Notes: generated by a model not told the origin, from the sequence alone. 64,000 nucleotides of DNA from Olavius algarvensis Delta 4 endosymbiont (GCA_905176665.1 CAJINA010000104.1:36699-100698), one strand, 5' to 3'; shown: positions 16,281 to 44,207, counted from the first letter of the stretch. Translations and numbers: made by a program.

Positions 16281-18461
16281 TTATGTTTCATCGAGTATGT
16301 GCCGTACCTTTTCAGAAAGGGTAGCTACGGAAAATGGTTTCTGAATGAAGCCGTTACACCCGCTTTGCATGATTTCTGCGGCTTGACCGTCAATAGCGTA
16401 GCCGCTCGAGAGCAACACTGCCATTTGTGGGTAAAGCTCACGGATGCGGCTGAACACCATCCCGCCATCCATGCCCGGCATGACCAGATCGAGGATAACC
16501 AGATCAATCTCATCACCGTCCTGTTCTATTTGAGCAACCGCCTGCTTGCCGCTTTTGGCAGCAAGAACCCGATATCCCAGTTTCTCCATCATACCCTGCC
16601 CCACGTCCAGGATCATCTGCTCATCATCGACCAGCAGGATGGTTTCCGATCCCCGCAGATACGTTTCGGCTTTTTGTGCTTCCCGCCGGGCTTTTGTATC
16701 TGACAGGGGCAGATGGATATTGAAGCTCGCACCCTGACCGATCTCGCTGGTCACGGTTATAAATCCATCGTGATTTTTGATAATCCCGTATGTGGAAGCC
16801 AGCCCAAGACCGGTCCCGCGTTCTTTCTCCTTGGTTGTGAAAAAGGGGTCGAAAATGCGTTGCCGGGTCTCCGCCTCCATGCCTGTGCCGGTATCGGTCA
16901 CGATGATATTGACATAGTGCCCTGGATTTACCTGGTGGGGGCCGGCCTGGGTACTGTCTACCGTCGTAATCCTGGTTTCCAGGTAAAGGTCGCCACCCAA
17001 CGGCATGGCCTGCCAGGCATTGACATATAGATTGATCATGACCTGTTCTATCTGACTGCGGTCAACTTTAACCACCGGGGCCGGCTTGTGGAATTTGACA
17101 TGAATCTTGAGTTCTTTTTTTGTGCGCCCAAACATGTTCACGCTTTTGCGAATTAGGTCATTGATGTCGGTAGGCTTGACCTCATATTTTCCGCCCCGGG
17201 CAAAGCCCAAGAGTTGTCGGGTAAGATCGGTTGCACTCCGAACGTAGTCCTCAAGGGCTTCAATGTGCTCATTATTTGAAGGCGGTTGCTCGGTATCCAT
17301 AGACATCAGCGATACCCGCCCCTGAATTCCCATGAGAAGATTGTTGAAATCGTGCGCAACACCGCCGGCCAGGGTCCCAATCGCCTCAAATTTCTGGGAC
17401 TGATGCAACTGCTGCTCCATCTCCTTGAGTTGGGTGATATCCGTGGCGATCTGCAGCCTTACAATGCGGCCATCGATCCACTTGACGGCTCTGTCATAGT
17501 TGATATACGTTTCGCCGGTTTTGGGATTCTCTCCCTGCCAAATGACCACCTCACCGGGGTCCCCGTCTTTGTCGAGCAGCCGCTTATTGGTGCAGATTCC
17601 ACAGGGTCGGTCTTCCCCCCTAAAGGCTTTAAAGCAACGTTCACCGGTAAAATTTCCGCCGAATCTGTCAATCATGTATTTGTTCATGAATAAGATCTCA
17701 TGGTTGTCCATGTCGGCAACGTAAACGGTGGCATCGATGCTGTTGAGGACCTTGAGAAAGGTCTGGTGGGTTTCTTTCAAAACCCGCTCTGAACCTTTGC
17801 GCTCGTCGATCTCATTCTCGAGAAGCTCATTCGTCCGCGCCAGCTCACGGGTTCTTTGCAGCACGCGGGACTCCAGTTCATTCTTGGACCGGGTAAGGGC
17901 ACTGAGAAGATAGAGGTTGTCATGCTTGGCTATGGCCATCTCAACCACCTGGTTGAGCAGCATCAGAATCTGCCTGAAACGGAATTCCTCAGGGGCACTG
18001 TCCATGAACAGGAACACGCCATGGGCGACTGTTTGGGAGTTGAACGGAATAAGCGCTATCTGCTGCGGGGCAAAATTCTCTTTGTTGAAACGGTACTGAA
18101 TGTCATTACCGGGGTGGATGATCGTTGGCCCGTATTCCAATTCGCGGGTGATGGCTGGGGTTAACTCAATGGGATAACCGGTGTGTTCCTCTTCGGAAAA
18201 CGCGGCATAGGTGGCGATGGGTTTTAGCGTGGTACCGTTATATTCCGCACAGGTTGCATAGGGGATCGTTTTCAGAATCGAAATACGCTCAAGGGTGTTC
18301 TCTATAATTTCAGTGCCACTGGAAAGGTTCTGAATGTTTTCGGAAACCAGCCCTAACAGTAGAGAGTCTTCCGCCCTCTCGGCCAACTGGGCATTTTCCT
18401 CCTCCAGGACGCGAACCTTATGCTCGAGAACGCCAATTTTTTTCTTCAACTTTTCAAACAT
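16281..18461 (-). CDS. Hybrid sensor histidine kinase/response regulator (coiled-coil, GAF/PAS-like, Cys-rich PAS, HisKA, HATPase_c, REC)
   Basis: HDFNNLLMGIQG H-box; N/G1/G2 boxes (DTGTGM, GTGLGL); C-terminal receiver ILLVDDE...DLVILDLVMPGMDG...K. PAS with C-x10-C-x2-C. Confidence 0.9.
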   Translation of the reverse strand: MFEKLKKKIGVLEHKVRVLEEENAQLAERAEDSLLLGLVSENIQNLSSGTEIIENTLERISILKTIPYATCAEYNGTTLKPIATYAAFSEEEHTGYPIELTPAITRELEYGPTIIHPGNDIQYRFNKENFAPQQIALIPFNSQTVAHGVFLFMDSAPEEFRFRQILMLLNQVVEMAIAKHDNLYLLSALTRSKNELESRVLQRTRELARTNELLENEIDERKGSERVLKETHQTFLKVLNSIDATVYVADMDNHEILFMNKYMIDRFGGNFTGERCFKAFRGEDRPCGICTNKRLLDKDGDPGEVVIWQGENPKTGETYINYDRAVKWIDGRIVRLQIATDITQLKEMEQQLHQSQKFEAIGTLAGGVAHDFNNLLMGIQGRVSLMSMDTEQPPSNNEHIEALEDYVRSATDLTRQLLGFARGGKYEVKPTDINDLIRKSVNMFGRTKKELKIHVKFHKPAPVVKVDRSQIEQVMINLYVNAWQAMPLGGDLYLETRITTVDSTQAGPHQVNPGHYVNIIVTDTGTGMEAETRQRIFDPFFTTKEKERGTGLGLASTYGIIKNHDGFITVTSEIGQGASFNIHLPLSDTKARREAQKAETYLRGSETILLVDDEQMILDVGQGMMEKLGYRVLAAKSGKQAVAQIEQDGDEIDLVILDLVMPGMDGGMVFSRIRELYPQMAVLLSSGYAIDGQAAEIMQSGCNGFIQKPFSVATLSEKVRHILDET

Positions 18462-19295
18462 TTACTTTCCTGCAAAGAAGTCAACCATCGCCGCTGCAAT
18501 TTGCTGAGGCTCGTCTTCCTGGATGAAATGGCTGCCCGTGGGGATTTTGATGAGTGTGTTGTTGGGAATATTGCGAGCCAATTTGCCTGCTATGGCCCCA
18601 CTCAGATAGGGGTCTGCGTCACCGCGGATGATAAGGACCGGCAGTTCAAGCCGATGCAGTTGGTCTGTAATTTCCAGCAGGTCCTGATTGTTCAAGCTGG
18701 CGGCAAAATGCAGAAAGGCTTTACGCCCCTCCCTGGATTTCATCTGGGCCCAGAAATATTCCATTAGTTCCGGGGTCAGATTCTCTTTGTGATACAAGCC
18801 ACGTCGGACAATCATGCGCAACGCGCCCATATCCAGGGTAGCCATCGCCAATTGTCGGACAATCGGGGTCCGCATGGCAATAATCGGCTGTACCGGCCAG
18901 AAATCGTAGGCGACAGAATTAATAACAACGAGGTCAAAAAGCATATCCGGATAATTGACCGCAAAAATCTGACCAATCCCGCCTCCGACATCGTGGCCGA
19001 CAAAGTGAAATTTACCAATCTCAAGTTTTTGCAAGAATTTTTGCAACAAGTGCGCATGGCGTTTTATGGAATAAGGTTGGTCCAGGTTCTTACTGGATAA
19101 GCCGCAGCCCACCAGATCCACCCCGATAAGCTGGTAGCGATCCTCAAGAAACGGGAGCACTTTTCTCCAAATAAACGAATAGGTTGATATGCCATGGACC
19201 AGCAGTAAGGGTTCTCCCTGGCCACGGACAAAATAGGCAAATTGATGCCCCTCGATGTCACAATGCGAAGTTGTAAGGTGTTCCATCATCAGCAC
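18462..19295 (-). CDS. Alpha/beta-fold hydrolase (haloalkane dehalogenase/epoxide hydrolase-like, Asp nucleophile)
   Basis: HGISTYSFIWRKV oxyanion region and VGHDVGGGIG nucleophile elbow with Asp. The stop abuts the kinase start. Confidence 0.8.
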   Translation of the reverse strand: MLMMEHLTTSHCDIEGHQFAYFVRGQGEPLLLVHGISTYSFIWRKVLPFLEDRYQLIGVDLVGCGLSSKNLDQPYSIKRHAHLLQKFLQKLEIGKFHFVGHDVGGGIGQIFAVNYPDMLFDLVVINSVAYDFWPVQPIIAMRTPIVRQLAMATLDMGALRMIVRRGLYHKENLTPELMEYFWAQMKSREGRKAFLHFAASLNNQDLLEITDQLHRLELPVLIIRGDADPYLSGAIAGKLARNIPNNTLIKIPTGSHFIQEDEPQQIAAAMVDFFAGK

Positions 19296-19433
19296 TCGAT
19301 TAGATCGTTCAACGCTATACAGGATAGAATACCATAGCCCTTTTAAAACACAAGGAATTGGGTATTACGCTGCCCAGACGGACCAAAACCTTATTCGAGC
19401 CCCCAGCAAATGAGAGGATTGCATTATTTTGTT

Positions 19434-19970: not shown

Positions 19971-20843
19971 CTAGTCAAAGCAACCAATTGCCGCTTCAAC
20001 TACCTTTTCCGGCTTGACCGGCTTTTTCACGTACCCGCGAGTCCCCAATGAGGCCGCCGCCATGACCTCTTTCTTGTCCGCCGTGGAGGTCAGCACAAGC
20101 ACCTTTGCCTGGGGCGCGATCTTTCTGATCTGACTGATGGCCTCAAGACCGTCCATATTCGGCATCACCATATCCGTTATGGTCAGTTCGGGCCGCTCCA
20201 CCTTGAACTTTGCGACGGCGTCAGCCCCATCCACGGCCTCTACAATAGTACAACCCTGGTTCTTGAAAGCCTTGACCAGCACTTTGCGAATTGTCCGGGA
20301 ATCATCGACGACGAGTAACTTTTTGCCGGTCAATACGGTTTCCGCAAACTCTTCAAAGGTTGCAAACATGGAAATTGAGTCGCCGGCAACGCGCAGGGTA
20401 ACAATGTGAGTTTCGCGTCTGGTAGGCGCGAGTTTGACTATCTTATTGGAATTCAGCTTTAAAGGCGGGCTGAATTTGGTATCCTTGCCCAGTCTATCCC
20501 ACCCATCAACCGCCTCCCCGACCACCGCGCACAGAAACCTGGTAAGGATGTTCGCAACCTGATTGTCCAGTTCCGATGCCGCAGACAATTTGTCATCCAT
20601 GCCGAGTTCAGATGCCAGGCGGATTGTCTTTTTATAATCCGTCAGGCCCAGGAAGCATTGCCCGGCCAGCTTTTCTTTCCAATCTTCATATGGGACGGCA
20701 ATACCCGTGGCATAATCACCTACCTGGGTGGTCTTGCTGGCTTTGACAACATAGCTGTCGGTCTGCTTTCTGGCCATCTGCGCATATACCTGTTTGCATG
20801 CTTCGGACAGTAACTGGAGATATTTATCATAATTGACAGCCAT
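19971..20843 (-). CDS. Response regulator with C-terminal receiver domain and N-terminal domain of unknown function (possibly CheC/CheX-like)
   Basis: C-terminal KKLLVVDDSRTIRK...ELTITDMVMPNMDGLEAISQIR...K receiver. The N-terminal 170 aa are unassigned. Confidence 0.7.
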   Translation of the reverse strand: MAVNYDKYLQLLSEACKQVYAQMARKQTDSYVVKASKTTQVGDYATGIAVPYEDWKEKLAGQCFLGLTDYKKTIRLASELGMDDKLSAASELDNQVANILTRFLCAVVGEAVDGWDRLGKDTKFSPPLKLNSNKIVKLAPTRRETHIVTLRVAGDSISMFATFEEFAETVLTGKKLLVVDDSRTIRKVLVKAFKNQGCTIVEAVDGADAVAKFKVERPELTITDMVMPNMDGLEAISQIRKIAPQAKVLVLTSTADKKEVMAAASLGTRGYVKKPVKPEKVVEAAIGCFD

Positions 20844-21945: not shown

Positions 21946-22468
21946 TCTATATGAGGACCTGGAATACCGACGTTATGCCTTGATAGAGGAACTCGAACTC
22001 TGCTCGAACGCTGTGCTCAGATTTCGACCAGGGCCGGATCGCTGGTCGATCCTCATGGTCGTTGAACACATGATCATGGGCGAAAGAGGTGTTAGGTTGA
22101 AAGGGGCCGAAATCCTTGGCGAACAGATCGAAGCTGACCCGCAATCCGAAAAGCTGTTCAAAATGGTCATTGAGATCCTGGATAAAGACGTGCCGGTGGA
22201 TGTCCCGGATCCGAGCATAGAGCCGGTTGGCAATAAAGACCTGCCGGACCTCCTAAAGCTCTGGGATACTGAACGTGAAAAACTCGGTAATCTCCTGGAG
22301 ACCGTCACACCGGCAGATGTGGGCAAAGTGGTGGCCAGGCATACGGTCACCGGGCCACTGGATCCAGTCAGGACATTAGAATTGGCCCTGGCGCATTTCG
22401 AAACCCACCACCGCCAAATCCGCCGTATTCTCAAAGATAAAAAATCAGGTGCGGCAATCAATCCTTAG
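21920..22468 (+). CDS. DinB/YfiT-like (DinB_2 superfamily) four-helix protein
   Basis: 182 aa. Pattern of conserved His in helices (HMIMGE..., HFETHH) resembles DinB_2. Overlaps the FGE gene by 26 nt. Confidence 0.45.
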   Translation: MKMIAKLRNLYEDLEYRRYALIEELELCSNAVLRFRPGPDRWSILMVVEHMIMGERGVRLKGAEILGEQIEADPQSEKLFKMVIEILDKDVPVDVPDPSIEPVGNKDLPDLLKLWDTEREKLGNLLETVTPADVGKVVARHTVTGPLDPVRTLELALAHFETHHRQIRRILKDKKSGAAINP

Positions 22469-23087
22469 CGCGTTCATGCGCTGAAAGCTTTAAGTCAGGA
22501 TAGAGGGTGTGGACACAATCGGGGCAGAGGCTGTGGGTCAGTTGGGTGCCGGCCTTGCGCCCCAAGTAGTCTTCAATGGTTTCCCACTGATCTTCAGGGC
22601 TTCTTATCTTCTTGCATTGTGAACAGATGGGCACCATTTCTCTCAGAACGACAAGTTCTGTAATGTCTTCCAATGCCAATATGGCGTATGGTTGCCCCTC
22701 GTGTTGAAAGGGCGACCCGGAAACCAGATAAACACACCGGTAAACATCATTCTTTGCCTGTCTTAAAAATTCGACCTTTCTTTTGACAACATGCTGCCCG
22801 GTGCAGCAATCACGAACCGTATTCCTGATCACACAATCGGGACAATGTTCTGCTGTCCCGCAACCAGCCGGGGCATTCATAGCATGGACACAATGCAGAA
22901 TCTCACCGCTCAAACGATGAAGGGAAACATCCTTCATGTTATTGGTAAGTTGAGCGCCGTAATGGTTCATGTCTACAACCCGAGCGTCTTGATCTACAAT
23001 GAATAGCGCGGACGGTATGGTATCGATGACGGTTCGTAGATTCATATCTTTCAGGCTTTTTGGAGACGCCATGGTACAATCCTTCAT
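22458..23087 (-). CDS. Cys-rich PAS-domain sensor protein with C-terminal CxxC…H…H…CPxC zinc-ribbon-like tail
   Basis: PAS fold (IPSALFIVDQDARVVDMN...). Cys cluster CGTAEHCPDC...DCC. C-terminal PICSQCKKIRSPEDQWETIEDYLGRKAGTQLTHSLCPDCVHTLYPD. Confidence 0.7.
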   Translation of the reverse strand: MKDCTMASPKSLKDMNLRTVIDTIPSALFIVDQDARVVDMNHYGAQLTNNMKDVSLHRLSGEILHCVHAMNAPAGCGTAEHCPDCVIRNTVRDCCTGQHVVKRKVEFLRQAKNDVYRCVYLVSGSPFQHEGQPYAILALEDITELVVLREMVPICSQCKKIRSPEDQWETIEDYLGRKAGTQLTHSLCPDCVHTLYPDLKLSAHERAKD

Positions 23088-23232: not shown

Positions 23233-26200
23233 CTAGCGTCGACCATCACCTACAATGGCATAGGGCGCCCAGAAAATCGGATGGGCGTATGAAAACCCCT
23301 GGTCATGATTCTTGGCAATCATGGCATTCATTGTCTGACGCAGCGCTTCGGCCCGGTTGATACCCGGGTTTTCCAATTGCCGTTTGAACAGGTCAGTGGT
23401 TAATAGTTTCGCACTCACCGTCTCCACCGGCCAGCCGGTCACCAGCATAGACCGGGCCCCGGCATAGAAAAAGGCTTGTCCCAATCCGGACACTGCTTCG
23501 GCGCCCTCACCTTCGGCCGCCCCGGTGTTGCAGGCCGACAAAACAACCCAGTCGGCATTGAGCCGCAGCCCCATGATTTCACCCATGGTCAGCAGGCCGT
23601 CCTCGTCTGGGTTACCGGTGATATCCGGGGCGCTCAGGGCCAGGGCCGGCTGATCGAGCCCGTCCAGGTCGCCCGGCACCAGGCCGTGGGTGGCAAAGAC
23701 CACCACCTTGCGGTTGCTCAGGTCCAGGGATTTAACAATCTGCTCGCTGGCCTGTTTACCGATGAACACATCCTTTTCAGTGTCCGCATTCAGCGAAACG
23801 GCAATATTGAGGACCTCCTCACGGGTATCCGGCAGACGGTTAAGCATGCTGATGTCAATGGATGCAATCTTCTTCTTGTCGATCCGGCCGGCTTCGGTCA
23901 CCCGGATGCCGCGCATCTGGATGGGAGCATTGCGCATGGCCAGCATCTGGTCCTGCATGGCTTCGTCCTCTGCTTGGGCCAGTTGATCTTTATTGAAGTA
24001 GGGATCACCGAATCCGGCATAGGCGGCCCGTTCAGTTTGCTGGGGAACAATGGAACGCAGGTTGACCAAAGCGGATACCGACGGCAGGACCGTCACCGAA
24101 TGGTGTCTTATCAACCAGTCGACATCCTGATAATTTGAAAAGACCGGTTTGCCGGTTGCGGCTTCGGTTTTGAATTTCGCCTTAGTCGGCAGGATGGAGA
24201 GTGGTATCTGGCCGATCGGTCCCTGGGTGATCACCATCAGATGCTCGGCTTCTTTCCAGCCGGTTTCGACTGGTTTAAGCGTCTGCTTATACAGACTGTA
24301 GGCCAGTTCCAGGTCAAACTGCGGCAACTCCAGGATCCCGAACACCTCACCCGGATTGAGGGCTTTTCGCAATTTGCCCACCACGCCTGCCATTTTTTCT
24401 TTTCCGATGGGAACCTTGGCCAGTGCTACTGGCCCGGTTTTGGGGATGGCCCAGATAAAGGTATAATCTTTTCCCGAGAAGATAGATATCAGGGTCTCGC
24501 TCTCATCCAACGTAGTTCGGACCTTGGCCACATCGGCACTCTCCAGGTTTACGATATTGGCGTACTCGGGAAAACTATTTTTAATCTCCTGTTCCAAAGT
24601 CTTTACTGCCAGATGAACGGTCGTTACCTGGTCGCGCAGTTCATTGATGACTTCGGTATTGATCAACTCTAGTGGTGCAAAAAGGGCATTGTTCAGTCGG
24701 TTTTTAAAAGCGGACAGTTTCAATTCCAAATCCTGACGCTGCCGGATCAGGCCAGCCAGGCCAGGGTCTTTCACTGCAACACGAGCTGAGCTTTGGGCTA
24801 CTGCCCGGCCGATCAGCTTGTCCTGCAAGGCGCTGGTATATTTAAAACTATTTTCGGCGTCCTCAGATTTGCCACTGTCGGCCAGCAGCGCCAGGTAGGC
24901 TTCCAGAATCAGTTTAAACTTAAATGGCCGCGCATTCTCCGAGTTGATGCCCTCCTCCTTGGTTTCCCATTTTTTCAGCAGCATGGGAACATATTGGTCA
25001 AATGTTTTCAGCGCGGTCTTGGGTTGGCCGAACCTTGCCAATGCAATAGCGTGTAACCCTTTCAGTTCAGCCTGTTTATAGGTATCCGCACCTATAATTT
25101 GTTCACTTTGCCGGACGGCGAACTCAAGCTTATCAATGGCCGCCTGAATATCGCCGCTCATCAACAGAGCCAGCCCCCATTCGGCACTCCCTTTAAACCG
25201 ACGATTAAAGGTCGCCGGGTCGGTTTTCAACTCATCCTCGATCAGCTTGAACTGCTCCAGCGCGTCCCTGTACTGACCAAGGGCAAACAGGGCTCGCGCA
25301 TAATCTTCCCGGGCTTTTGCCCTAACAAAGGCGTCAATGGGAGCCCGCAAAGACATGGTCACATGCAACGCCGTCCGCGCACATACGCTGGCATCTTCAA
25401 AGCGGCCCTGTGCGAAAAAAATGCGGCTCAAAGTCAGGAATGCGTGCGGTTGGATGTTTACGTGCCCCAGGCGAACAGCTTCGCGCACCTGTATTTCTGC
25501 TTCCGTTACACGCCCCTGCGCCAGCAGAACCCGAGCAAGATTTACATGGGCTTCGGGTTCATGCGAGGTTGGCTCGGCCAAGCGGCCATTGTGGCGGAAC
25601 TTATCAAGGTCAATCAGAAGCTGTCGATACGCCTGCTCGGCCGCCGCCAAATCCCCGCGGGCAAAATCAACTGCTGCCCTGGACCGGGTGACGACTGCCT
25701 TCATCAGAAGTGATCTGGCGTGGGTACTGTGGTTTCGCCCCGTCCAGGATCTATATTGGCTATAGTAACGATTGGCTGCAGAAAGCGCCGGTTCGGCTGC
25801 TTTGTAATCGCCGGCCTCTGCCAGGATTGAGGTCTTGAAGGCATACGCTTCAGATTTATTCCCAGACATCCTTTCAGGCGCTTTGGAAATTGCCAGGTCT
25901 GCCAACCGGATTGAAAAGCTGAGGTTGCCCAGTAAAAATTCATCATAGGCCCAAGTGGCATAAAATCTGGGCTCATCATACTTGCGTTGTTTCTTTACGC
26001 CTTTATAGAGGTCATTGAGTTCCGCGTCGGTATACCTTTTACGGGGAATCAGGAATTCTGCGGGCACATTGGGTGGGTCTTTATAGTAGGCCACCTTCCG
26101 CTCGATCAACTCCCCCAACCCTCGTGGCGGAACGATCTTATATGTCTCCTGAAACTCAATGGCCACATCCTGGGCCTCTTGAACAGACATAGTGTTGGTT

Positions 26201-26274
26201 TTACACCCGGTGATGATTCCAACCATAGCTATGAATACAAGGATCTTGAGCAACCGCGCAGAAGTCGTATGCAT
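23233..26274 (-). CDS. CHAT-domain (caspase-like) protein with TPR repeats, lipoprotein
   Basis: Lipobox IITGC after a signal peptide. Central TPR-like repeats. C-terminal CHAT with His/Cys dyad context (VVFATHG... VVLSACNTG). Confidence 0.85.
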   Translation of the reverse strand: MHTTSARLLKILVFIAMVGIITGCKTNTMSVQEAQDVAIEFQETYKIVPPRGLGELIERKVAYYKDPPNVPAEFLIPRKRYTDAELNDLYKGVKKQRKYDEPRFYATWAYDEFLLGNLSFSIRLADLAISKAPERMSGNKSEAYAFKTSILAEAGDYKAAEPALSAANRYYSQYRSWTGRNHSTHARSLLMKAVVTRSRAAVDFARGDLAAAEQAYRQLLIDLDKFRHNGRLAEPTSHEPEAHVNLARVLLAQGRVTEAEIQVREAVRLGHVNIQPHAFLTLSRIFFAQGRFEDASVCARTALHVTMSLRAPIDAFVRAKAREDYARALFALGQYRDALEQFKLIEDELKTDPATFNRRFKGSAEWGLALLMSGDIQAAIDKLEFAVRQSEQIIGADTYKQAELKGLHAIALARFGQPKTALKTFDQYVPMLLKKWETKEEGINSENARPFKFKLILEAYLALLADSGKSEDAENSFKYTSALQDKLIGRAVAQSSARVAVKDPGLAGLIRQRQDLELKLSAFKNRLNNALFAPLELINTEVINELRDQVTTVHLAVKTLEQEIKNSFPEYANIVNLESADVAKVRTTLDESETLISIFSGKDYTFIWAIPKTGPVALAKVPIGKEKMAGVVGKLRKALNPGEVFGILELPQFDLELAYSLYKQTLKPVETGWKEAEHLMVITQGPIGQIPLSILPTKAKFKTEAATGKPVFSNYQDVDWLIRHHSVTVLPSVSALVNLRSIVPQQTERAAYAGFGDPYFNKDQLAQAEDEAMQDQMLAMRNAPIQMRGIRVTEAGRIDKKKIASIDISMLNRLPDTREEVLNIAVSLNADTEKDVFIGKQASEQIVKSLDLSNRKVVVFATHGLVPGDLDGLDQPALALSAPDITGNPDEDGLLTMGEIMGLRLNADWVVLSACNTGAAEGEGAEAVSGLGQAFFYAGARSMLVTGWPVETVSAKLLTTDLFKRQLENPGINRAEALRQTMNAMIAKNHDQGFSYAHPIFWAPYAIVGDGRR

Positions 26275-33345: not shown

Positions 33346-33615
33346 TCATTCGGAATACTTTTTCCACAGGTGCCCATAAGCGCCGTTTTGCTTGATCCGA
33401 TCCAAGGAAGTCTGGAGTTTATTCACAAGAACATCCTCAGTTTTGCGGTTCACCGCCAGGTAATAATCATAGCGGTCATCCAGCAGGATCGTTTTCACTA
33501 CAAGATATTTTGAGGTAGTTGCTTTAAGGTGCGCCGGGTAATTCTCAGCGAGATTGTTTCCCTTAATTTTATCTATTTCGGAAATAGTCCCTGAGCACGC
33601 CCTTGACCAGATCAC
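33346..33615 (-). pseudogene. Relic C-terminal fragment of a solute-binding protein family 3 (amino-acid ABC substrate-binding) gene
   Basis: 89-aa ORF ...YYLAVNRKTEDVLVNKLQTSLDRIKQNGAYGHLWKKYSE matches only the C-terminal about 60 aa of SBP_bac_3 proteins. No N-terminal domain. Overlaps the 3' end of the caspase-like gene. Confidence 0.4.
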
Positions 33616-35616: not shown

Positions 35617-37311
35617 TCATTGGTTCTTAAAATAGTCTTTCATAAGGCTGCGTACATAACCCTCAACGCTGTTAGGATATGCAAGCCAGGCGGGCCTGAA
35701 ATTTTTAGAGTAAATCTTTGCCTTAGCTAAGTCATATAAATAGAAGGTAAAACTTCCGGGATAGATTTCACCTTCTATCATCAAAACAAGATCCACGTCA
35801 ATTTTCAGATTGAGTTTATTAACTTCTTCCCAATCCGGCTTCAATCTGGAGAATATCGATTTCTTTTTCCATACATCATTTTTCGTAATATCACTTAGAA
35901 TTGTTACGCCTTCCGTAAAGTCCTCAAATTCTTCGTAACCATGGGTTAATTTTAATCTATCATCATCAAACGTTACATTGGCGACTGCTTGTATGCTGGC
36001 CAATTGATAACTACGCAGATATCTATCATCATTCGTGGAAGCATATAAATTCTGAGGTAATATCGCCAATTTGTATTCTTCTCGGGAAGCTTTCCGGTTT
36101 AACGCTCCGGGTTGATTTTTTACGGGAGGAGATACTGCCGCGACCATTTGCTGGCCAACCGGCGGGGCGGTTTCTTGAGGTTTGCGCTTCATATCTTCCA
36201 GTCGCGCCTGCAGCTTGGCATATTCGATCTCCTGTTTTTGCTGTTCCAACTTGAGCTTTTCCAGTTCGATGGTTTTCTGCTGAGCCAACTGCTCTTTTCC
36301 CAATGCCAGCTTTTGCTTTTCAATCTCAAAGCGCTGGCGCTGTAGCTCCAGTTCAGCCTGGGCCACCGCGGCCTGCTTTCAGGTCCGGTCCTGCTGCTGC
36401 CGCTCGGCTTCCAAAGCCGTGTGCTTCCGGGCGTGCTCCGCGGCCCAGGCCGTGTTGTAAAGCACGAACTGACCGTCCTGGTCCATGGGCGTCTTCAAAC
36501 GCCCCACGTTGGGCCGCTGGTCGCCGATCTCGGTCACCTTGGTCCAGACCCGGGTGTGGAACAGGTTTTCCAGGTCGATCACCTCGCGGTCGTTCTTGCG
36601 CAGAGCATCGATCAGGTAGTAGGCAAACAGGCTGTGGCCCTCGGCGCCGCCGTCCGCCACCGGCTCCACCCCACCCGACGAGATGACCTGACGCGAACGC
36701 AGAGATGCTTTCTGGACCAGCTTTTCCTTGTAGCGGCGGTCGTTTAGCGACATCAACGACGGTCCGCCTCTCAGCATGGAACCGCTGTAGCAAGAGTCGG
36801 CAATGACCACCACGTTCTTGGCCTGCAGTTTTTCCGAGCTGAGCACCGCGTTGATGTAGGAGTTGGCCACCCAGGTCCCGGGGTTTTTCAGGGCACCTTC
36901 GGCCGGTACCCAGTAACCGTCGCCGGTAAAGTCGTCCAACTGGCCGTGGCCGGCATAATAGACGAACAGGTTGTCGTGCACGCCCATGGACTGGGCCAGG
37001 TACCGCAGGTCTTCGATGATCTGCAGGCGGCTGGCTTTACGGTCGGTACGCAGGATGACGTTATCAGGTTGAAATCCGTAGCGGGAGATAAGAGTCTCTT
37101 TGATAACCGTGGCATCCTTCACTGCGGTCTGCAGCCGCGGCCACTTGGCATAGTCATTTATGCCGATGATCAGGGCGTGGTAGTCACCCCAGGAACCGGA
37201 CGCACCGGATTGCGGGGCGATGGCCAGGCCGCGCTGTGGGGATTGAGCTAAAACAGGATGATTGAGAAGAAAAAGCAGGAATACCAATAAGGTAAGAATT
37301 CTCAAATGCAA
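35617..37311 (-). pseudogene. Caspase-like (C14) paralog 2 interrupted by an in-frame TGA (36379-36381); otherwise the same architecture
   Basis: ORFs 36379-37311 and 35617-36366 are collinear with paralog 1. The TGA AAG replaces the CGG CAG (Arg-Gln) of the paralog inside the coiled coil. No SECIS-like hairpin follows. Confidence 0.6.
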
Positions 37312-37415: not shown

Positions 37416-38015
37416 CTATCCTTGCTTATAAAATTTGGGATAATTTTCCTGGGAGCAATCGGGACACATGGAGTGCGGAACTTCTATGTCTGAATAATCT
37501 TTTATATATTGCTCGACGATCACCCAGCGGTTGTCAGGCTCGCGGACTTTGTTGCAACGGATACAGATGGGCGCGATTTCCCCCAGGGCACCCAATATCA
37601 ACTTGTTCATGGCGCGTACCCGCAGGCTCATGCTCTCCAGCAGCTCCAAGGCTAACTCCGGATTTTTCCGGATTTGGTTTTGGAAATCTTCCCGTTCGAT
37701 ACAGACCACTTGCACATAAGTGTCGGCCACTACAGTGGCGGAACGATTTTGCCGGTCAATAAGGGACATCTCTCCAAAATAGCTTTTGGGCCCGAAGGTC
37801 TGAATGTGCTTCTGGTATTTTTCCCCATAGCCAGTATAAATTTTGACCTGACCGTCGATCACGATAAAGAGCCGGTCACCCTGTTCGCCTTCCTGGATGA
37901 TGACATCCTCCCGTTCAAATTCATATTGTTTCGCTTTGTCACTAAGCTGTTTCAGGTCTAGCTCCGGTAGTTTTCCCAGCAAGGGAATTGCTTGAAAAGT
38001 TGCAGACCAGTCCAT
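37416..38015 (-). CDS. Cyclic-nucleotide-binding (cNMP/CAP effector) domain protein with C-terminal Cys4His2 zinc-ribbon-like tail in place of an HTH
   Basis: GEQGDRLFIVIDGQVKIY...YFGEMSLIDRQNRSATVVA cNMP-binding signature. Tail APICIRCNKVREPDNRWVIVEQYIKDYSDIEVPHSMCPDCSQENYP. Confidence 0.8.
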   Translation of the reverse strand: MDWSATFQAIPLLGKLPELDLKQLSDKAKQYEFEREDVIIQEGEQGDRLFIVIDGQVKIYTGYGEKYQKHIQTFGPKSYFGEMSLIDRQNRSATVVADTYVQVVCIEREDFQNQIRKNPELALELLESMSLRVRAMNKLILGALGEIAPICIRCNKVREPDNRWVIVEQYIKDYSDIEVPHSMCPDCSQENYPKFYKQG

Positions 38016-38047
38016 TGAGATCCTATCCTCCCTATTAAATTAAAAGA

Positions 38048-41000
38048 CTATCGATAATCACCAATAACCTGGAATGCAGCCCAATAATAAGGATGCCGGT
38101 ATTCCGGGTTCCCAATCATTTCTAACTGGGCCTGCCGCATGGCGGCAAACTTATTCATGGATTTTGGATTCGCGTAAAAGTGTTTCATCAACACACTGGT
38201 GGACTTGTCGTTCACACTCCAGAAGGTGCTCATGATCGAGGGTGTCCCGGCAAACATGAAGGCCCGGGTCAACCCCATGAGCTCGTCGCCGCTGGCCATT
38301 TTGCCCATAGCGGTGTTGCAGGCGCTAAGTGTAACCAGATAGGCATTCAGATTAAGCTCGAAGATTTCGGCGGTTTCCAGCCGGCCATCCTCATCGTTGC
38401 CCGGGGCCAGCCGCAGGCAGGAGAGCAGCGGGGTGTCCTGGTTGAATTCCCCGTGGGAAGCAATATGCAGAATATCGTAGTTGCCGGCGCTTTGCTTGAA
38501 AGCCGACTCTGAAGCCTGGTTCTGCGTCAAAACTGTGGTCTGATTGAAAAACTGCCTGATGTCCCGGACTTCAACCTCCGCATAGGGCAGCGTCATTTGG
38601 GGGTTACCCAGATTGGGGTTTCCGAGTGCCAGGACCGCCTTTTTAACAGTCTTCTTTTTATCAAAGACATGCCCGAGAACCGAGGCGCTGGGGGAGTAGC
38701 CAATCTCGTAGCTTTCAATCAAATATTTTCCTTCGAGGGTCAGGGCCTGGAAAGGCAGGTAGTGGAGAATCCCGTGCGGAATGATATATATTTTCCCGGC
38801 TGGGATGCCTGATAAAATGTCCGTGACCAGGACATCTTCCAACTGCCGGCTGATGGCCGCCAGGCTTTCCCGGGTTGGGGTCTGACGCGGCGCTTCCTGT
38901 GCGGCGACTTCCAGCCCGCGGACTGTATCCGGCCGACTGATAAGGTCGCGGTAGGCGCTGACAAGCTCAAGCAACTCGCTTGCGTCTATCTGTTTTTGAA
39001 CAAACCGAAAAGATTGCGGCCCGATGATCCAGGCAAATAGGTGCTTATCCCGGAAGTAATATTCCACCAGATGGGCATCCGCCGGAAGCAGTGCCTGGAC
39101 TTTTTCAATCGGCAGGGTGTCCGCTGACCGCAGGGATGCAAAATCTTTATTCCGACGAAACCAGCGCGAAAAGAACTCACCCAGGGCGCCCCGGGCGGCC
39201 GCTATTTCCCGGCTGTTGTCTATAGCCGCACCGCGTTCCTGGAACATACGCGTGTTCATTTCCGTACGGTATTGGACGTTCAACAAGTTCTCCCGCAGCC
39301 TTTTTTCTTCTTCCGTTATCTCCTTGAGGGCTTCGTTTTTTTGGCCGATGATTTTATCCGATCTGGCGATCAAATCAAGAAAGGCGCGTGCTTTTGATTT
39401 TTCTACATAATTATAGGCTGCTTTCGTTCGCTCTAGTTTAACCAAGCACTTTACCATGCGGGCGTAAGGCTCCTGCTTGTCCGACATGAAATTAATTTTA
39501 AGACCATGCGAAGTAAGTCGCGCCCGCGAAAATTCGATGGCATCGATTGCTTTTTGGTAGAATTCCACGGCCAACTCCAGCTTGTTTTCGGACTCGGCGA
39601 TCATCCCCTGGAGCTGGTAGGACCGCCACAGGAAGGCATTGGTCGGGGATTTTACGTTTTGCAAGATTTCCCGCGCCGGCTTGTATTGCCCCTGGTGGTA
39701 TAGTGTTTTGGCGATCCCGATTTGGATGCTGATCATCTGGTCATGGTATATGGCAGGCCGAACCTCGTAGCCAAGATACTTTTCTGCCTCCCTATATAGC
39801 CGCAGCGCCTCTACATAACCGCCGTTGCGCAGAGCGGCATCGCCCATGGTTTGATAGGCGATAGCCAGGGGGACAAACTTACCGATCTCCGTCGTCCGTG
39901 TATTGTAATGCGCCCAGGTGTCGTCAAAATTGTTTATGACCCGGTACGCATAGTATTCGGCCTCAGAACCATCCTGAAGGTGGTAGTGGTTGATGGCCAG
40001 GTAGGCACTTAATAGGAATTCCAGGTAATTCGCTTTGCCGATGATGTGTTTGGGCACCGGTCGTGACAGATTTTCTTTTACCCGCTCGATTTCCTTGAGG
40101 GCCTTTTCGCATTCGGCCACCGAGCTGTGGTAGTCCCCCACGAAGTTGTACGCCAAGGCGAGCCCGGAGCGCACTTTAGGCGTCAAGAGGGTCAGGGGTT
40201 GCTCCGCTTGCAGCCGGCTGGCTTTACGGTGGTAATCCAGGCTCTTATTGTATAGCCCGGTCCAGCGGTAATAATCGCCGATCCGGGCGTAAACATAGCT
40301 CAGGCTGTCGCCGGCCAGACTCCCGGGGTCGCTGATTTCCGCCAACAGATAGGGCAGCTTCACCAAAGCGATATAGAGTTCTTCATCGTTCAGGTCTTTA
40401 AAGAGGGCGAATTGATCCGGGAAGCGACGATCTTCTTTCACCCCGGTTGCCGATAGCTGTGAACGCCCTGATGTATGGGTTCTGATTATCGCCAGGTTTA
40501 TTCTTTTAATTATATACCGCTCATAATTAATCCTACCGCCCCTGTTGGCCGAGCGTACTTTCTGGTGGCCAAACTCGATGGTGTTTTTTCCGGAACGAAA
40601 ATAGGAAGCCGGCAGGTAGCGCTGGGTCCGGGCCTGCTTTTTTCGTTTTTTGGGCCCGGCTTGCCCGGCGTACCATTCGTCCTGATTAATCCCGTATCCT
40701 GCTCGCTTCAAAAAGCCAATCGGATGGCCGTTTAAAAAGAGCGGGTTTTCGGGATGATCTACATCCAGGGTATCGATGCTCAGGTAGGCGTACCGAATCC
40801 GCTGGGTCTCTTTCAGGTTGAAATCAAAGTGGTAGGATTGACGTACGCCGCCCCCGCTGCCTGATGAACCCATCTGCACGCCCAGGTTTCGGCTCTGAAA
40901 AAGCTCCTGCTCGAGGTGCAGGTTCTCCCTACCCTGCGGAATTGTGATTTGAAGGTTGGTGGATGAGCTGACACAGGCCCCTGCAAGCAGCGGCAGCAGG

Positions 41001-41074
41001 AACATCAAGATGATTAGGCGGATATTGTTTTTAAGGGCCTCCATTTGTACCCACCTTCCAATCCGTGTACACAC
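38048..41074 (-). CDS. CHAT-domain protein with TPR repeats, secreted/lipoprotein (paralogous architecture to 23233-26274)
   Basis: Signal peptide ending LLAGAC. TPR-like repeats. C-terminal CHAT (ILHIASHGEF...VTLSACNTAMG). Confidence 0.85.
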   Translation of the reverse strand: MCTRIGRWVQMEALKNNIRLIILMFLLPLLAGACVSSSTNLQITIPQGRENLHLEQELFQSRNLGVQMGSSGSGGGVRQSYHFDFNLKETQRIRYAYLSIDTLDVDHPENPLFLNGHPIGFLKRAGYGINQDEWYAGQAGPKKRKKQARTQRYLPASYFRSGKNTIEFGHQKVRSANRGGRINYERYIIKRINLAIIRTHTSGRSQLSATGVKEDRRFPDQFALFKDLNDEELYIALVKLPYLLAEISDPGSLAGDSLSYVYARIGDYYRWTGLYNKSLDYHRKASRLQAEQPLTLLTPKVRSGLALAYNFVGDYHSSVAECEKALKEIERVKENLSRPVPKHIIGKANYLEFLLSAYLAINHYHLQDGSEAEYYAYRVINNFDDTWAHYNTRTTEIGKFVPLAIAYQTMGDAALRNGGYVEALRLYREAEKYLGYEVRPAIYHDQMISIQIGIAKTLYHQGQYKPAREILQNVKSPTNAFLWRSYQLQGMIAESENKLELAVEFYQKAIDAIEFSRARLTSHGLKINFMSDKQEPYARMVKCLVKLERTKAAYNYVEKSKARAFLDLIARSDKIIGQKNEALKEITEEEKRLRENLLNVQYRTEMNTRMFQERGAAIDNSREIAAARGALGEFFSRWFRRNKDFASLRSADTLPIEKVQALLPADAHLVEYYFRDKHLFAWIIGPQSFRFVQKQIDASELLELVSAYRDLISRPDTVRGLEVAAQEAPRQTPTRESLAAISRQLEDVLVTDILSGIPAGKIYIIPHGILHYLPFQALTLEGKYLIESYEIGYSPSASVLGHVFDKKKTVKKAVLALGNPNLGNPQMTLPYAEVEVRDIRQFFNQTTVLTQNQASESAFKQSAGNYDILHIASHGEFNQDTPLLSCLRLAPGNDEDGRLETAEIFELNLNAYLVTLSACNTAMGKMASGDELMGLTRAFMFAGTPSIMSTFWSVNDKSTSVLMKHFYANPKSMNKFAAMRQAQLEMIGNPEYRHPYYWAAFQVIGDYR

Positions 41075-41141: not shown

Positions 41142-44100
41142 CTAGCTACCATTCCTTCCGGTGCTTTTACCATCGAGAATCTCCCGGACTTTCTGGGACA
41201 GATCGGAGATATTGTACGGTTTCTGGATAAACCCGTTGCAGCCCTTTTTCATGATCTCGTTCGCCTGGCCGTCGAGGGCGTAGCCACTGGCGAGAATAAC
41301 CGGCATATTCGGCTTGATCTTTTTAATGCGATCGAAGGTCTTGCCTCCATCCATACCCGGCATGATCAGATCCAGGATCACCAGATCGATGGCATGGCCA
41401 TTGTGCTTGATCAGATCCAAGGCCTGTTCTCCGCCATCGGCCACCAGGGAATTATAGCCCAACTTGGTCAGCATGGCCTCGCCCACATCACGGATCATTT
41501 CTTCGTCATCGACCAGAAGGACTGTTTCGGTTCCCCTGACCAGTTTACTTTTGACGGAAACCTCCGGGAGGGCGTCTTTATCGCTCAACGGCAAATGAAG
41601 ATTAAAGGTGGTACCGACGCCGACTTCACTATTTACCACGGTAAAACCGTCGTGATTGTTAATGATGCCGTAAACCGAAGCCAGGCCCAAGCCGGTCCCG
41701 CGCCCCTTCTTTTTGGTGGTGAAAAAGGGGTCGAATATCCGCTGCCTGGTGGCCTCGTCCATGCCGACACCGGTGTCCGTCACCGACAGCTTGACATACC
41801 GCCCGGGTGCGATGTCGTAAGGTTGGCAGTAAGACTCGTCCAGGTCGACAATCTGGGTCGCCAGGTACAGCTCGCCGCCATCGACCATGGCCTGCCAGGC
41901 ATTGATGTACAGATTCAACAATACTTGTTTGATTTGACCACGGTCCACAGCCACTACGGGGGATGGGTCTTGGAACCGGGTATGTATCCGGATTTCTTTC
42001 TTTGTCCGCCCGAACATTTTGGCGCTTTTGCCCACCAGGTCATTGATCTCGGTAGGCTTGACTTCATATTTGCCACCCTTGGCCAGCCCCAGGAGTTGGC
42101 GGGTCAAATCAGTGGCATTGCGAATATAGGTCTCGATCGCCTTGATATTTTCCAAATCCATTTGGGAAGATTCGAGATCTACCGCCAGAAGTGAAGACCG
42201 CCCCTGGATGCCCATGAGAAGATTATTAAAATCGTGGGCAATCCCGCCGGCCAGCGTGCCGATTGCCTCGAACTTCTGGGTTTGCTGAATCTGTTGTTCC
42301 ATTCTTTTAAGATCGGTTATATCGGTCGCAATTTGCAGCCTGACCAGCCGTCCGTCCGTCCATTGAATGGCGCGGTCGTGGTTGATGTACCATTTTCCGG
42401 TAAGGGGATTTTTACCCTGCCAGATGCATACATCCTTTGGTTGACCCTGGGCATCCACCAGTTGGTCATTGGTGCAGTGCGGGCACGGACCGGTCGAGCC
42501 CCGGAATGCTCCCCAGCACAATTGGCCGGTCATATCCCCACCGAAACTCTCCACCATATTTCTATTCATGAATAGGATTTCGGAGGTATCCATATCGGCC
42601 ACATATATGGTCGCATCGATACTGTCCAGTACCGTAAGGAACCTTTCATGGGATATGCGCAGGGCCTCGCGGTTTTTCTTGCGCTCGGTGATATCCAGTG
42701 CGGTGAAGGTAACCCCCTTCGAAAGATCGCTCAGATCCATGGGGGTTGAACTGAGCAGCACATCGAGTATGCGGCCGTCTTTGGTCTGCCAGCGGGTCTC
42801 GACCGTCCCGGTGCCGTGCTCGCTTATCTGGCGGTATTTTTCGCGGCCGACATATTCATAATCTTCATCACTGGGATATAATATCCTGGCATTCTGATCG
42901 ACCAGCTCCTCCTCGGTGTAGCCCGTCATTTCACAGATGCGTGCATTGACCTGTTTGAACATGCGATCGGCGACCACGCCGATATCGGTCGGTGCAATCC
43001 GAAACACACTCGACAACTGCTCTTCACTCTCCTGCAGGGCCAGTTCGGCCTGTTGGCGTTCGCTGATATCCCGAACCACACTGAGTACGGCCGGTGCCCC
43101 GGCATATTCGATATAGGTAGCGGTCGACTCAGCTACCAAAGTCTGACCATCAACTGTCAAATATTGAAATTCCGCTGGATGTAAGGTGATATGTTCTTGG
43201 TATACTTTTTGGATCCGCGCCTTTACGTGTTCATAGAACTGGGGGGACACAAAATTCATCAGATCCTGGCCGTTGAGCTCCTGTGCGTTGGCCGCACCAA
43301 ACATTTCTACACCACTGGGATTGATGTACTTGATGATATTGTCCTGGTGCACAAAAACAGCCTCCGGAAAAAGCTCTACAAGGCTTTTGTACCTGCTTTC
43401 CGATTCCTTTAGCTGATCGATGAGGCTCTGGACCTCCTGGGTCTTCATACTAAGACTGGCGACCATCGAATTGAAGAACGCTGTCAACTGGCCGATTTCA
43501 TTGTCGCGGATCGGGTCGACCGGCAGCAGCTTTCCCGCGGCAACATCCTGAGTCGCCCGGATCAGGCGGTTGAGTGGTTTCGTGAGGGCGTACCGGAACG
43601 TAAGCAACAGCACGAAAAATACGGCAGCCAGCAGCACGATGGTGCTGATGACAACGCTGCGACGGGCCGTCGCCATGGGGGTCTGGAGTTCCTGCATGTA
43701 CACGAAACTGATGATGTGCCAGTCCCAGAAAGGAAAATATTGGACCAGCGCCTGAATCGTTTCCGCGCCCAGCCGAATGTTTTCAAGTTTCCCTTCCTGC
43801 CCTTCCAGGGGCGGCAATTGCCAGACATCATTAGGATAGTCGACCGATATGGTCTTGATGATCTGTTTGTCTTCCAGGACCATGATATGCACGCCCGTCA
43901 CCTGGGTTCCGATTTTTTTTATTGCCGTCAGAGCCTCTTTTTGCAAGGCAGCGTTCATATCCAGGTTGTCTTCCAGGCGCATATCCAGAAGCTGGTTGAA
44001 ATGGCTCTCGCAAACCCCAACCCCCAGACTGGCAGTGAGCCGCAGGTTGTCTTCAAAGTGTTGGTTTACATGGTCTTCTATGTGTGGGGAGATGTAAACA

Positions 44101-44207
44101 ATCAGCAGCCAGGCAATCAGGACGCCGACGAGAAATACCGGTAAAATCAGCCAGAAAATAATTCGCCGGTAAAAAGGCGGGGTGTGAGATTCGCTTGAAG
44201 GTGCCAT
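41142..44207 (-). CDS. Hybrid sensor histidine kinase/response regulator (TM, HAMP, 3 PAS including a Cys-rich PAS, HisKA, HATPase_c, REC)
   Basis: Two TM helices plus HAMP. HDFNNLLMGIQG H-box. ATP lid. C-terminal receiver. Paralog of 16281-18461. Confidence 0.9.
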   Translation of the reverse strand: MAPSSESHTPPFYRRIIFWLILPVFLVGVLIAWLLIVYISPHIEDHVNQHFEDNLRLTASLGVGVCESHFNQLLDMRLEDNLDMNAALQKEALTAIKKIGTQVTGVHIMVLEDKQIIKTISVDYPNDVWQLPPLEGQEGKLENIRLGAETIQALVQYFPFWDWHIISFVYMQELQTPMATARRSVVISTIVLLAAVFFVLLLTFRYALTKPLNRLIRATQDVAAGKLLPVDPIRDNEIGQLTAFFNSMVASLSMKTQEVQSLIDQLKESESRYKSLVELFPEAVFVHQDNIIKYINPSGVEMFGAANAQELNGQDLMNFVSPQFYEHVKARIQKVYQEHITLHPAEFQYLTVDGQTLVAESTATYIEYAGAPAVLSVVRDISERQQAELALQESEEQLSSVFRIAPTDIGVVADRMFKQVNARICEMTGYTEEELVDQNARILYPSDEDYEYVGREKYRQISEHGTGTVETRWQTKDGRILDVLLSSTPMDLSDLSKGVTFTALDITERKKNREALRISHERFLTVLDSIDATIYVADMDTSEILFMNRNMVESFGGDMTGQLCWGAFRGSTGPCPHCTNDQLVDAQGQPKDVCIWQGKNPLTGKWYINHDRAIQWTDGRLVRLQIATDITDLKRMEQQIQQTQKFEAIGTLAGGIAHDFNNLLMGIQGRSSLLAVDLESSQMDLENIKAIETYIRNATDLTRQLLGLAKGGKYEVKPTEINDLVGKSAKMFGRTKKEIRIHTRFQDPSPVVAVDRGQIKQVLLNLYINAWQAMVDGGELYLATQIVDLDESYCQPYDIAPGRYVKLSVTDTGVGMDEATRQRIFDPFFTTKKKGRGTGLGLASVYGIINNHDGFTVVNSEVGVGTTFNLHLPLSDKDALPEVSVKSKLVRGTETVLLVDDEEMIRDVGEAMLTKLGYNSLVADGGEQALDLIKHNGHAIDLVILDLIMPGMDGGKTFDRIKKIKPNMPVILASGYALDGQANEIMKKGCNGFIQKPYNISDLSQKVREILDGKSTGRNGS

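Follow-up and report, generated by a model that had tools for sequence, protein, structure and literature searches.

To our knowledge, only a handful of PAS domains with a cysteine-ligated metal centre have been described (NreB, OrpR). NreB and OrpR each brought to light a sensing chemistry not seen before, directed at O2, redox potential or sulfide. PAS domains in which three conserved cysteines bind an Fe-S cluster are represented by OrpR (PMC8359166) and by NreB of B. licheniformis (PMC13478379). OrpR, a sigma54 activator of Desulfovibrio vulgaris Hildenborough, is a [4Fe-4S] redox sensor with the motif C-x8-C-x3-C (PMC8359166). The NreB of S. carnosus carries a [4Fe-4S] cluster on CX2CX11CX2C, and that of B. 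licheniformis, which ties the PAS cysteine site to sulfide sensing, holds a [2Fe-2S] cluster by three Cys plus a labile sulfur (CX2CX11C, PDB 9WEX) (PMC13478379).

Here we analysed a stretch of 64,000 nucleotides from the Olavius algarvensis Delta 4 endosymbiont, referred to as a whole as the window. Three of its proteins, encoded at 16281-18461, 41142-44207 and 27999-28610, each contain one Cys-triad PAS module of ~124 residues, comprising C-x10/11-C-x2-C and a downstream motif. The three modules form part of one discrete, large and unnamed PAS subfamily of the Desulfobacterota, built around an invariant Cys triad. The four open reading frames named in the preliminary description of this DNA (these three and 22458-23087) were confirmed on the minus strand with their coordinates, and the peptides quoted there are exact. 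The relevant features are the following.

16281-18461, minus strand: HK1, a hybrid histidine kinase of 726 aa (N-terminal region, Cys-triad PAS, HisKA, HATPase_c, REC)
17433-17759, minus strand: Cys-triad PAS module of HK1, aa 235-343, x10 subtype
17634-17636, 17601-17603, 17592-17594, minus strand: codons of the HK1 triad C276/C287/C290
17352-17354, minus strand: phospho-His H370 of HK1, 26 residues beyond the DIT motif
41142-44207, minus strand: HK2, a hybrid histidine kinase of 1021 aa (TM/periplasmic region, HAMP, PAS, PAS, Cys-triad PAS, HisKA, HATPase_c, REC)
42315-42641, minus strand: Cys-triad PAS module of HK2, aa 523-631, x10 subtype
42516-42518, 42483-42485, 42474-42476, minus strand: codons of the HK2 triad C564/C575/C578
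42234-42236, minus strand: phospho-His H658 of HK2
27999-28610, minus strand: small one-component-like protein of 203 aa, TTG start, GAGGAG Shine-Dalgarno sequence (Cys-triad PAS, 32-aa coiled-coil linker, CxxC...CxxC tail)
28251-28577, minus strand: Cys-triad PAS module of the small protein, aa 12-120, x11 subtype
28455-28457, 28419-28421, 28410-28412, minus strand: codons of the small-protein triad C52/C64/C67
28044-28154, minus strand: CxxC-x29-CxxC tail of the small protein, aa 153-189
22458-23087, minus strand: Cys4 PAS protein, of a family separate from the triad modules; tail at 22515-22625
22890-22892, 22860-22862, 22842-22844, 22833-22835, minus strand: codons of the invariant Cys of the Cys4 PAS protein
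28641-30521, minus strand: multi-PAS protein of 626 aa with four ordinary PAS domains and no triad; tail at 28680-28790
37416-38015, minus strand: cNMP-binding protein of 199 aa; C-terminal tail at 37455-37565

A six-frame scan of the window for C-x(8-14)-C-x2-C followed by [AGS]xD[IVL][TS] gave exactly three occurrences. Exactly three matches (222, 207 and 166 bits) were likewise obtained when a module-only hidden Markov model (HMM) was run against the window's open reading frames, bearing out the earlier proposal that these proteins share a three-Cys cluster and a downstream strand; the other PAS domains of the window gave no match to it, even at E<=10. Of the curated PAS models, only PAS_8 (17.8-21.9 bits; cut-off 21.8) and TIGR00229 (17.7-20.4 bits; cut-off 22.9) come close to or reach their thresholds, both mainly over the N-terminal third. 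Searches of Pfam, NCBIfam, the PDB and the literature yielded no name for a Cys-triad PAS family, and literature searches on the motif spacing, on 'Cys-rich PAS' and on the signature of the tail returned nothing specific.

The cysteines are conserved among relatives, the check that the preliminary description had proposed. Each of the 259 distinct modules from other organisms carries all three cysteines, and since these modules share a mean pairwise identity of only ~52%, the invariance of the triad is far beyond chance. C2 and C3 are missing from P0205, a member scoring 102 bits. Between C1 and C2 lie 9 to 12 residues across the family, in most members 10 or 11, and the C-x2-C spacing of the second pair does not vary. 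Further conserved positions include the Pro of PCxxC (P56, 88%) and the Asp of the Y-x-N-x-D-R-A strand (97%). No fourth Cys or His is conserved across the 259 modules. Thus, of the 'three to four' clustered cysteines reported earlier, three are invariant and the fourth is facultative: the additional Cys of HK2, in 'DVCIW', recurs in 29% of members only. A Cys or His occurs at column 59 or 76 in 62% of members, but 98 of the 259 (38%) have neither, which rules out a conserved fourth protein ligand at these columns. The family also shows no conserved Cys two to three residues ahead of C1, and its alignment contains no invariant His.

A word-indexed homologue search had returned 5 matches, suggesting a rare module. 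This view was overturned by a genome scan, whose confirmed loci in species-representative genomes number at least 583 and lie almost entirely in Desulfobacterota, and by an exhaustive HMM search, which gave 3,187 clusters at 50% identity at E<=1e-30; the 5 matches therefore reflect the limited sensitivity of word-indexed search. The profile of the exhaustive search (202 positions) contained ~78 HisKA columns, so that counts at E<=1e-3 and E<=1e-10 are inflated by generic kinases; only the count at E<=1e-30 is used here, and conservation was re-derived with the module-only HMM. The hosts are sulfate reducers, with many Cys-triad paralogues per genome. When the flanks of 80 loci were clustered all against all, no conserved neighbour, genomic partner or operon emerged, and the genomic contexts of two homologues of the small protein differ from each other. 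The homologue P0165 is 99% identical to the small protein and of equal length. The 'block' in the window is a matter of paralogue density rather than an operon. It is no functional unit either, given the vast expansion of the family, the scatter of its loci and the lack of any conserved neighbour.

The AlphaFold (AF2) model of the HK1 module is a confident PAS fold (pLDDT 92.7), with the five-stranded antiparallel sheet (A, B, G, H, I), helices and likeness to solved PAS domains. Within the modelled module, beta2 ends at residue 31, the cysteines lie at 48, 59 and 62, and G-beta begins at 78. C1 aligns with the photoactive Cys of LOV domains in E-alpha, and the CxxC takes the place of the start of F-alpha. 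The triad thereby occupies the region of the PAS fold where cofactors are usually bound.

We compared the module with known Cys-ligated PAS domains, as had been suggested earlier. In common with NreB, it belongs to histidine kinases and has its Cys between B-beta and G-beta; in the B. licheniformis protein beta2 ends at 43, the Cys are at 63, 66 and 78, and beta3 begins at 89. That protein also has three Cys only and an open fourth site. The motif definitions, however, do not fit. C-x10/11-C-x2-C equals the spacing of the last three Cys in S. carnosus NreB, but the first Cys of that motif is missing from the module; in B. licheniformis NreB the CxxC comes first, whereas the module begins with the single Cys. 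Moreover, NreB joins an N-terminal PAS to HisKA_3, whereas the triad module usually stands beside HisKA (PF00512) in a hybrid kinase. OrpR resembles the family as a cytoplasmic PAS of a sulfate-reducing deltaproteobacterium that controls an output domain, has three conserved Cys in the same fold region and has a nearby conserved acidic residue proposed as fourth ligand. Judged by its published description, it differs in its spacing (C-x8-C-x3-C) and in its output, a sigma54 AAA+ domain with HTH rather than HisKA or the CxxC tail. Sequence and structure searches with the module established no link to any known Fe-S PAS and did not retrieve NreB, although 9WEX possibly lies outside the copies searched. 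An identical C-x10-C-x2-C spacing with known [2Fe-2S] ligation is found in FhuF (C-C-x10-C-x2-C; PMC8068687), which has an unrelated helical-bundle fold and a fourth, vicinal Cys and is thus a motif precedent only.

The closest solved structures by Foldseek are LOV domains (YtvA, PpSB1-LOV; TM about 0.66). Among PDB sequences, too, the family profile matches YtvA LOV best (E 0.011 over the full length), which places C1 on Cys62. Relative to the LOV motif GKNC-RFLQG, the family G-x-x-C-[WF]-x-x-[FL]-[RQ]-G has a one-residue insertion and an aromatic residue for the Arg after the Cys. Unlike LOV domains, the module has F-alpha swapped for the PCxxC loop and carries two extra invariant Cys. A heme-c PAS of the Geobacter-type periplasmic kind was rejected, as CXXCH is absent: the window copies read CGICT, CPHCT and CDFCS, and the family consensus has T-N after C3.

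The linker from the module to the kinase His measures 26 or 33 residues and that from the module to the CxxC...CxxC tail 25 or 32; as each pair differs by a heptad, the linkers are heptad-quantised. An x10 spacing goes with HisKA kinases, an x11 spacing with non-kinase outputs. Modules of the x10 subtype are mostly the kinase-adjacent PAS (177 of 217), behind variable N-terminal sensors. The triad module usually adjoins the DHp helix directly (70/83 and 132/174). It has also been shuffled between outputs that are unrelated and into internal positions of domain arrays; none of the family matches showed a sigma54 architecture. The common input proposed earlier for kinase and zinc-ribbon outputs is hence upheld in so far as the module precedes both through heptad linkers, but not as the property of a functional block.

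The tail, CxxC-x29-CxxC with invariant P, C, C, R, W, C and C, is common to the proteins at 27999-28610, 22458-23087, 28641-30521 and 37416-38015. Since the 28641-30521 protein, with ordinary PAS domains and no triad, ends in it as well, the tail is an output for different inputs. Its AF2 model has short strands at both CxxC motifs, at a pLDDT of 71 only. Pfam zinc-ribbon matches to the tail are at noise level (E 0.05-0.1), Foldseek against the PDB gave nothing below E 0.1, and no matching Pfam or NCBIfam family or solved fold was found; from its motifs, the designation 'zinc ribbon' is plausible.

The further Cys cluster that had been pointed out at 22458-23087 is real but belongs to another subtype, with 21% identity to the triad module. 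Four Cys of the PAS core are invariant in this family (C66, C76 in G-C-G, C82 and C85), kept down to 36% identity, and a CPxC motif is present, whereas the 'DCC' pair (C94, C95) is not conserved among homologues. The true start of this protein is likely the ATG at 23072, as homologues begin MASPKS.

Our tentative reading, quite possibly correct if somewhat short of probable, is that the module is a metal-centre sensor PAS, most likely with an Fe-S centre and an open fourth site. That metal is bound, which metal it is and what signal is sensed are all inferred. In such a sensor, E-alpha and the usual F-alpha segment would be rebuilt around the C-x10/11-(P)C-x2-C triad, which would ligate a metal centre, likeliest [4Fe-4S] or [2Fe-2S]; the fourth ligand would be non-Cys, with the 97%-conserved Asp as candidate, or exogenous and labile. 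Were the centre oxidised, its cluster lost or converted, or a ligand exchanged through O2, NO, sulfide or redox potential, the PAS core would change, and the signal would then travel down the heptad-phased coiled-coil linker, to the phospho-acceptor helix of HisKA in the x10 hybrid kinases and to non-kinase outputs, the CxxC...CxxC tail included, in x11 proteins. Against a sensor, thousands of paralogues, several per genome, would be highly redundant for one signal, and the restriction to anaerobes may reflect phylogeny rather than oxygen lability. The wider proposal, that the triad PAS is an unrecognised Fe-S sensor with an open or labile fourth site that forms a phylum-wide redox/sulfide/O2 gate on a large share of Desulfobacterota hybrid kinases, with x11 gating one-component proteins whose tail would be an undescribed output and NreB and OrpR as convergent cases, is possible but rather doubtful.

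The best-surviving alternative, which we consider unlikely, is structural or regulatory zinc. Three cysteines with Asp or water could equally bind Zn(II); completed in this way or by a facultative Cys or His, the triad would staple the loop that replaces F-alpha, as a folding or dimerisation unit of an expanded kinase family, either non-sensing or an Hsp33/RsrA-type Zn-thiolate switch. A folding-essential site inherited by paralogues would explain the invariance of the triad equally well. The conserved PCxxC resembles a zinc or rubredoxin knuckle, AF2 models its loop confidently without any cofactor, the module usually lies beside the DHp helix in genomes with many paralogues, and the sister family at 22458-23087 has CPxC and four Cys. 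Structural zinc sites normally have four conserved protein ligands, which columns 59 and 76 could complete in the 62% of members noted above but not in the remaining 38%. Furthermore, the triad sits in the canonical cofactor pocket rather than in a peripheral loop, the module is shuffled among outputs and array positions as sensor PAS domains are, and the three-Cys PAS precedents bind Fe-S, not Zn.

CxxC is a classical redox-active dithiol motif, and the module could instead be a metal-free thiol switch: oxidants or sulfane sulfur, signals abundant in sulfide-producing bacteria, would drive the CxxC pair, with C1 as third or resolving thiol, to form disulfides, persulfides or polysulfide bridges. 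The sulfate-reducing hosts and the precedent of sulfide sensing by B. licheniformis NreB are consistent with this, but we judge it improbable: strict invariance of three Cys at fixed spacing in all 259 modules is more than a thiol switch commonly requires, the four invariant Cys of the sister family are typical of metal ligation, and the documented precedents use clusters. Least credible, and very unlikely, is a LOV-derived organic-cofactor PAS, with flavin or another chromophore, C1 as adduct Cys and the other Cys incidental, or its variant with a thiolate-ligated heme: the LOV matches speak for it, but the LOV flavin-contact residues R63, Q66, R79, N94, N104 and Q123 of YtvA pair with variable residues, Tyr or Ala in the module (HMMER alignment to 2pr5), whereby the flavin reading was rejected, CXXCH and an invariant His are missing, and the invariance of C2 and C3 is left unexplained.

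Taken as a whole, the triad modules make up a sharply delimited family of no fewer than 3,000 sequence clusters, for which neither Pfam nor NCBIfam has a model and the literature searched gave no description; in most members found, the triad site directly precedes a kinase transmitter. Both the isolated module and the 203-aa protein are small and look soluble, so that the cofactor question can be tested directly. Even if the site is structural zinc, the definition of the family and of its x10 (kinase) and x11 (non-kinase) subtypes would improve the annotation of thousands of 'PAS domain-containing' proteins. If the Fe-S reading is true, a single cofactor chemistry would be wired into thousands of signalling proteins, and much of the two-component signalling of marine sulfate reducers would be gated by one redox/sulfide-sensitive cofactor.

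The four ORFs singled out in the preliminary description are present on the minus strand, and the peptides quoted from them are exact in the four translations:

16281-18461, minus strand, hybrid kinase HK1
41142-44207, minus strand, hybrid kinase HK2
27999-28610, minus strand, small protein of 203 aa
22458-23087, minus strand, fourth protein

The proposal that a PAS domain with a Cys triad (C1, C2 and C3) is common to HK1, HK2 and the small protein was confirmed by a pattern scan and by an HMM built on this ~124-aa module only. The full pattern, C-x(8-14)-C-x2-C ... xD[IVL][TS], occurs exactly three times in a six-frame scan of the window, and exactly three window ORFs match the HMM (222, 207 and 166 bits). 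None of the ~10 other PAS domains of the window matched it, even at E≤10. Together, these results mark the module as a discrete PAS subtype rather than the tail of a continuum. The HK1 module is 60% identical to that of HK2 and 40% identical to that of the small protein; ten residues separate C1 from C2 in both kinases (x10) and eleven in the small protein (x11).

The preliminary description had made its cofactor proposal depend on conservation of the Cys among relatives. The triad was kept in 259 of 259 distinct modules (all sources pooled, E≤1e-15) and in all 83 modules of the best 80 genome loci. Among 167 distinct modules from representatives (mean pairwise identity ~52%, minimum 13%), C46, C57 and C60 (HMM columns) were each found in 164 rows, and the Cys-less hits identified in this set were ordinary PAS domains (19 bits). 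Asn30 is the sole other position as invariant as the triad, while D20, G43, D93, W98, D111 and E119 are 95-99% conserved. No fourth conserved Cys or His was detected across the 259 modules: column 76 holds C (29%), Y (23%), V (11%) or H (11%), column 59, within the CxxC, holds H (39%), F (25%) or C (6%), and 98 modules have neither Cys nor His at these two columns. A metagenomic fragment of 173 aa (P0205, 102 bits; SPHSDGDFTEND) keeps C1 but carries D and T at C2 and C3, and is a natural triad-loss variant.

An AlphaFold2 model of the module (six-sequence alignment; pLDDT 92.7, pTM 0.84) has canonical PAS topology. C1 (model residue 48) starts E-alpha (48-53), and the loop that carries C2 and C3 (residues 59 and 62), modelled with confidence (block pLDDT 88-91), stands in place of the long F-alpha helix; G-beta begins at residue 78. 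The best PDB sequence match of the family profile was the YtvA LOV domain (E 0.011, matched over its full length); there C1 falls on the photoactive Cys62, and the CxxC on the N-terminal end of helix F-alpha. This alignment and the model place the triad in the canonical PAS cofactor site. The module was ruled out as a LOV domain, since the LOV flavin-contact positions are not conserved in the profile alignment to YtvA. The three ligand Cys in the NreB [2Fe-2S] crystal structure lie, like the triad, in the B-beta to G-beta segment.

We infer a metal centre at the triad. The candidate tentatively favoured, at somewhat below even chances, is an Fe-S cluster whose fourth ligand is labile or not a Cys, because the only characterised three-Cys PAS domains, those of OrpR (PMC8359166) and Bacillus licheniformis NreB (PMC13478379), both bind Fe-S clusters, the triad spacing equals that of known cluster motifs, no fourth protein ligand is conserved and the site fills the cofactor pocket. 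That the triad is a zinc site is rather unlikely, and a metal-free thiol switch is improbable. An organic cofactor held by the module is very improbable. The comparison with known Cys-ligated PAS sensors, also suggested in the preliminary description, gave no match to any NreB or OrpR motif definition: the Staphylococcus carnosus NreB motif needs four Cys, B. licheniformis NreB has the reversed Cys order and a HisKA_3 kinase, and OrpR, set apart by motif description, has C-x8-C-x3-C and a sigma54 output. The heme-c PAS motif definition failed as well, and the module departs from LOV domains at the flavin-contact positions. In its general plan the module resembles the Fe-S PAS sensors, yet it belongs to none of these families.

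A further Cys cluster had been noted in the fourth protein. Four PAS Cys (C66, C76, C82 and C85) are indeed invariant in its homologues, down to 36% identity, whereas the 'DCC' pair is not conserved. C76 lies within G-C-G, and C82/C85 form C-P-x-C; aligned to triad modules, C66 corresponds to C1 and C82/C85 to the CxxC, with C76 in a 5-residue insertion. Identity to the HK1 module is only 21%, and this protein belongs to a different family built on a related idea. Its apparently complete four-ligand Cys site supports a metal-binding reading for that fold region.

A word-indexed search with one module returned 5 metagenomic fragments, a sensitivity artefact. Scanning one genome per GTDB species by pattern and tblastn yielded at least 596 stretches, at least 583 of them confirmed as module loci, and an HMM run exhaustively against 1.84 billion cluster representatives retrieved 3,187 at E≤1e-30. 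The profile of the latter also spanned ~78 HisKA columns. A hit to HisKA alone scores ~47 bits, so this threshold requires the module, whereas counts at looser E do not. The module was present in all of the top 150 representatives. The best 80 of the at least 583 loci belong almost all to Desulfobacterales, Desulfobulbales or Syntrophobacterales, and include the isolates Desulfobacter curvatus, Desulfospira joergensenii and Desulfosediminicola flagellatus, a MAG assigned to Desulforapulum autotrophicum and, within these 80 alone, several MAGs with two loci each. The family is confined mainly to strict anaerobes. Top identity to the window was only 66% among the genome matches listed, indicating that the genome of the window itself is absent from the representatives; Logan contig L081 encodes a small protein 99% identical, with the same neighbours. 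Pfam matches are limited to PAS_8 over the N-terminal stretch of the module, sub-threshold or borderline, and those in NCBIfam to TIGR00229, sub-threshold. No specific family for the module was found in either, even at E≤10, nor any Cys-metal PAS among PDB sequences by profile searches, nor a description in the literature searched.

The sensor block also holds aconitase, LCM methyltransferase, cNMP-binding and other genes, together with:

23233-26274 and 38048-41074, minus strand, TPR-CHAT proteins, ~1,010 aa each
33569-35278 and 36379-37311, minus strand, caspase-like Peptidase_C14 proteins

The view of this block as one unit did not hold. Clustering of flanking ORFs at the best 80 loci revealed no recurrent neighbour besides the kinase family itself, and the genomic contexts of two small-protein homologues differ, so the three copies within 28 kb reflect a density of paralogues rather than an operon. 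In the two caspase-like proteins, the C14 matches cover almost the same profile and residue positions, suggesting that a duplication took place recently. A response regulator (19971-20843, minus strand, 290 aa) has its receiver domain C-terminal (aa 177-284), after a 175-aa N-terminal region without a Pfam match. GC content is 0.43-0.47 at the window ends (1-4000, 52000-64000) versus ~0.52 centrally, around the sensor block.

Four different sensor proteins of the window end in a C-terminal tail of ~45 aa, CxxC-x29-CxxC, with the consensus LP[IV]C[SA]xCKK[IV]RDDxGxWxx[IV]ExY...[FV][ST]H[GS][IL]CP[ED]C.

Tails in the window and the input domains of their proteins
28044-28154, minus strand, tail of the small protein; Cys-triad PAS
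22515-22625, minus strand, tail of the 22458-23087 protein; Cys4 PAS
28680-28790, minus strand, tail of a multi-PAS protein; four ordinary PAS domains
37455-37565, minus strand, tail of a cNMP-binding protein; cNMP-binding domain

Eleven more small Cys-PAS proteins with a tail were found, making this architecture recurrent. From DIT, the motif ending I-beta of the module, to the phospho-His of kinases there are 26 (131 cases), 33 (58) or 23 (3) residues, and to the first tail Cys 25 (4 cases) or 32 (7). Seven-residue steps mark a coiled-coil signalling helix, and their occurrence in these linkers indicates that, in kinases and tail proteins alike, the module is probably wired as a sensor that transmits. 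HisKA comes next in 177 of 217 x10 modules and in 1 of 46 x11 modules, and 11 of 12 tail proteins have x11; C1-C2 spacing partitions by output. The module is mobile: it is further combined with HisKA_2/HWE kinases, a STAS domain and GGDEF fragments, lies inside multi-PAS arrays and can be repeated in tandem, at most three times over. HK1 aa 1-223, upstream of the Cys-PAS, lacks any Pfam domain, nor was a predicted membrane segment noted there. Neither Pfam nor NCBIfam has a family for the tail, solved structures gave no match, and the literature searched does not describe it. The tail seems to be an output or partner-binding domain of one-component sensors that has so far gone undescribed, and it may rival the PAS module in interest.
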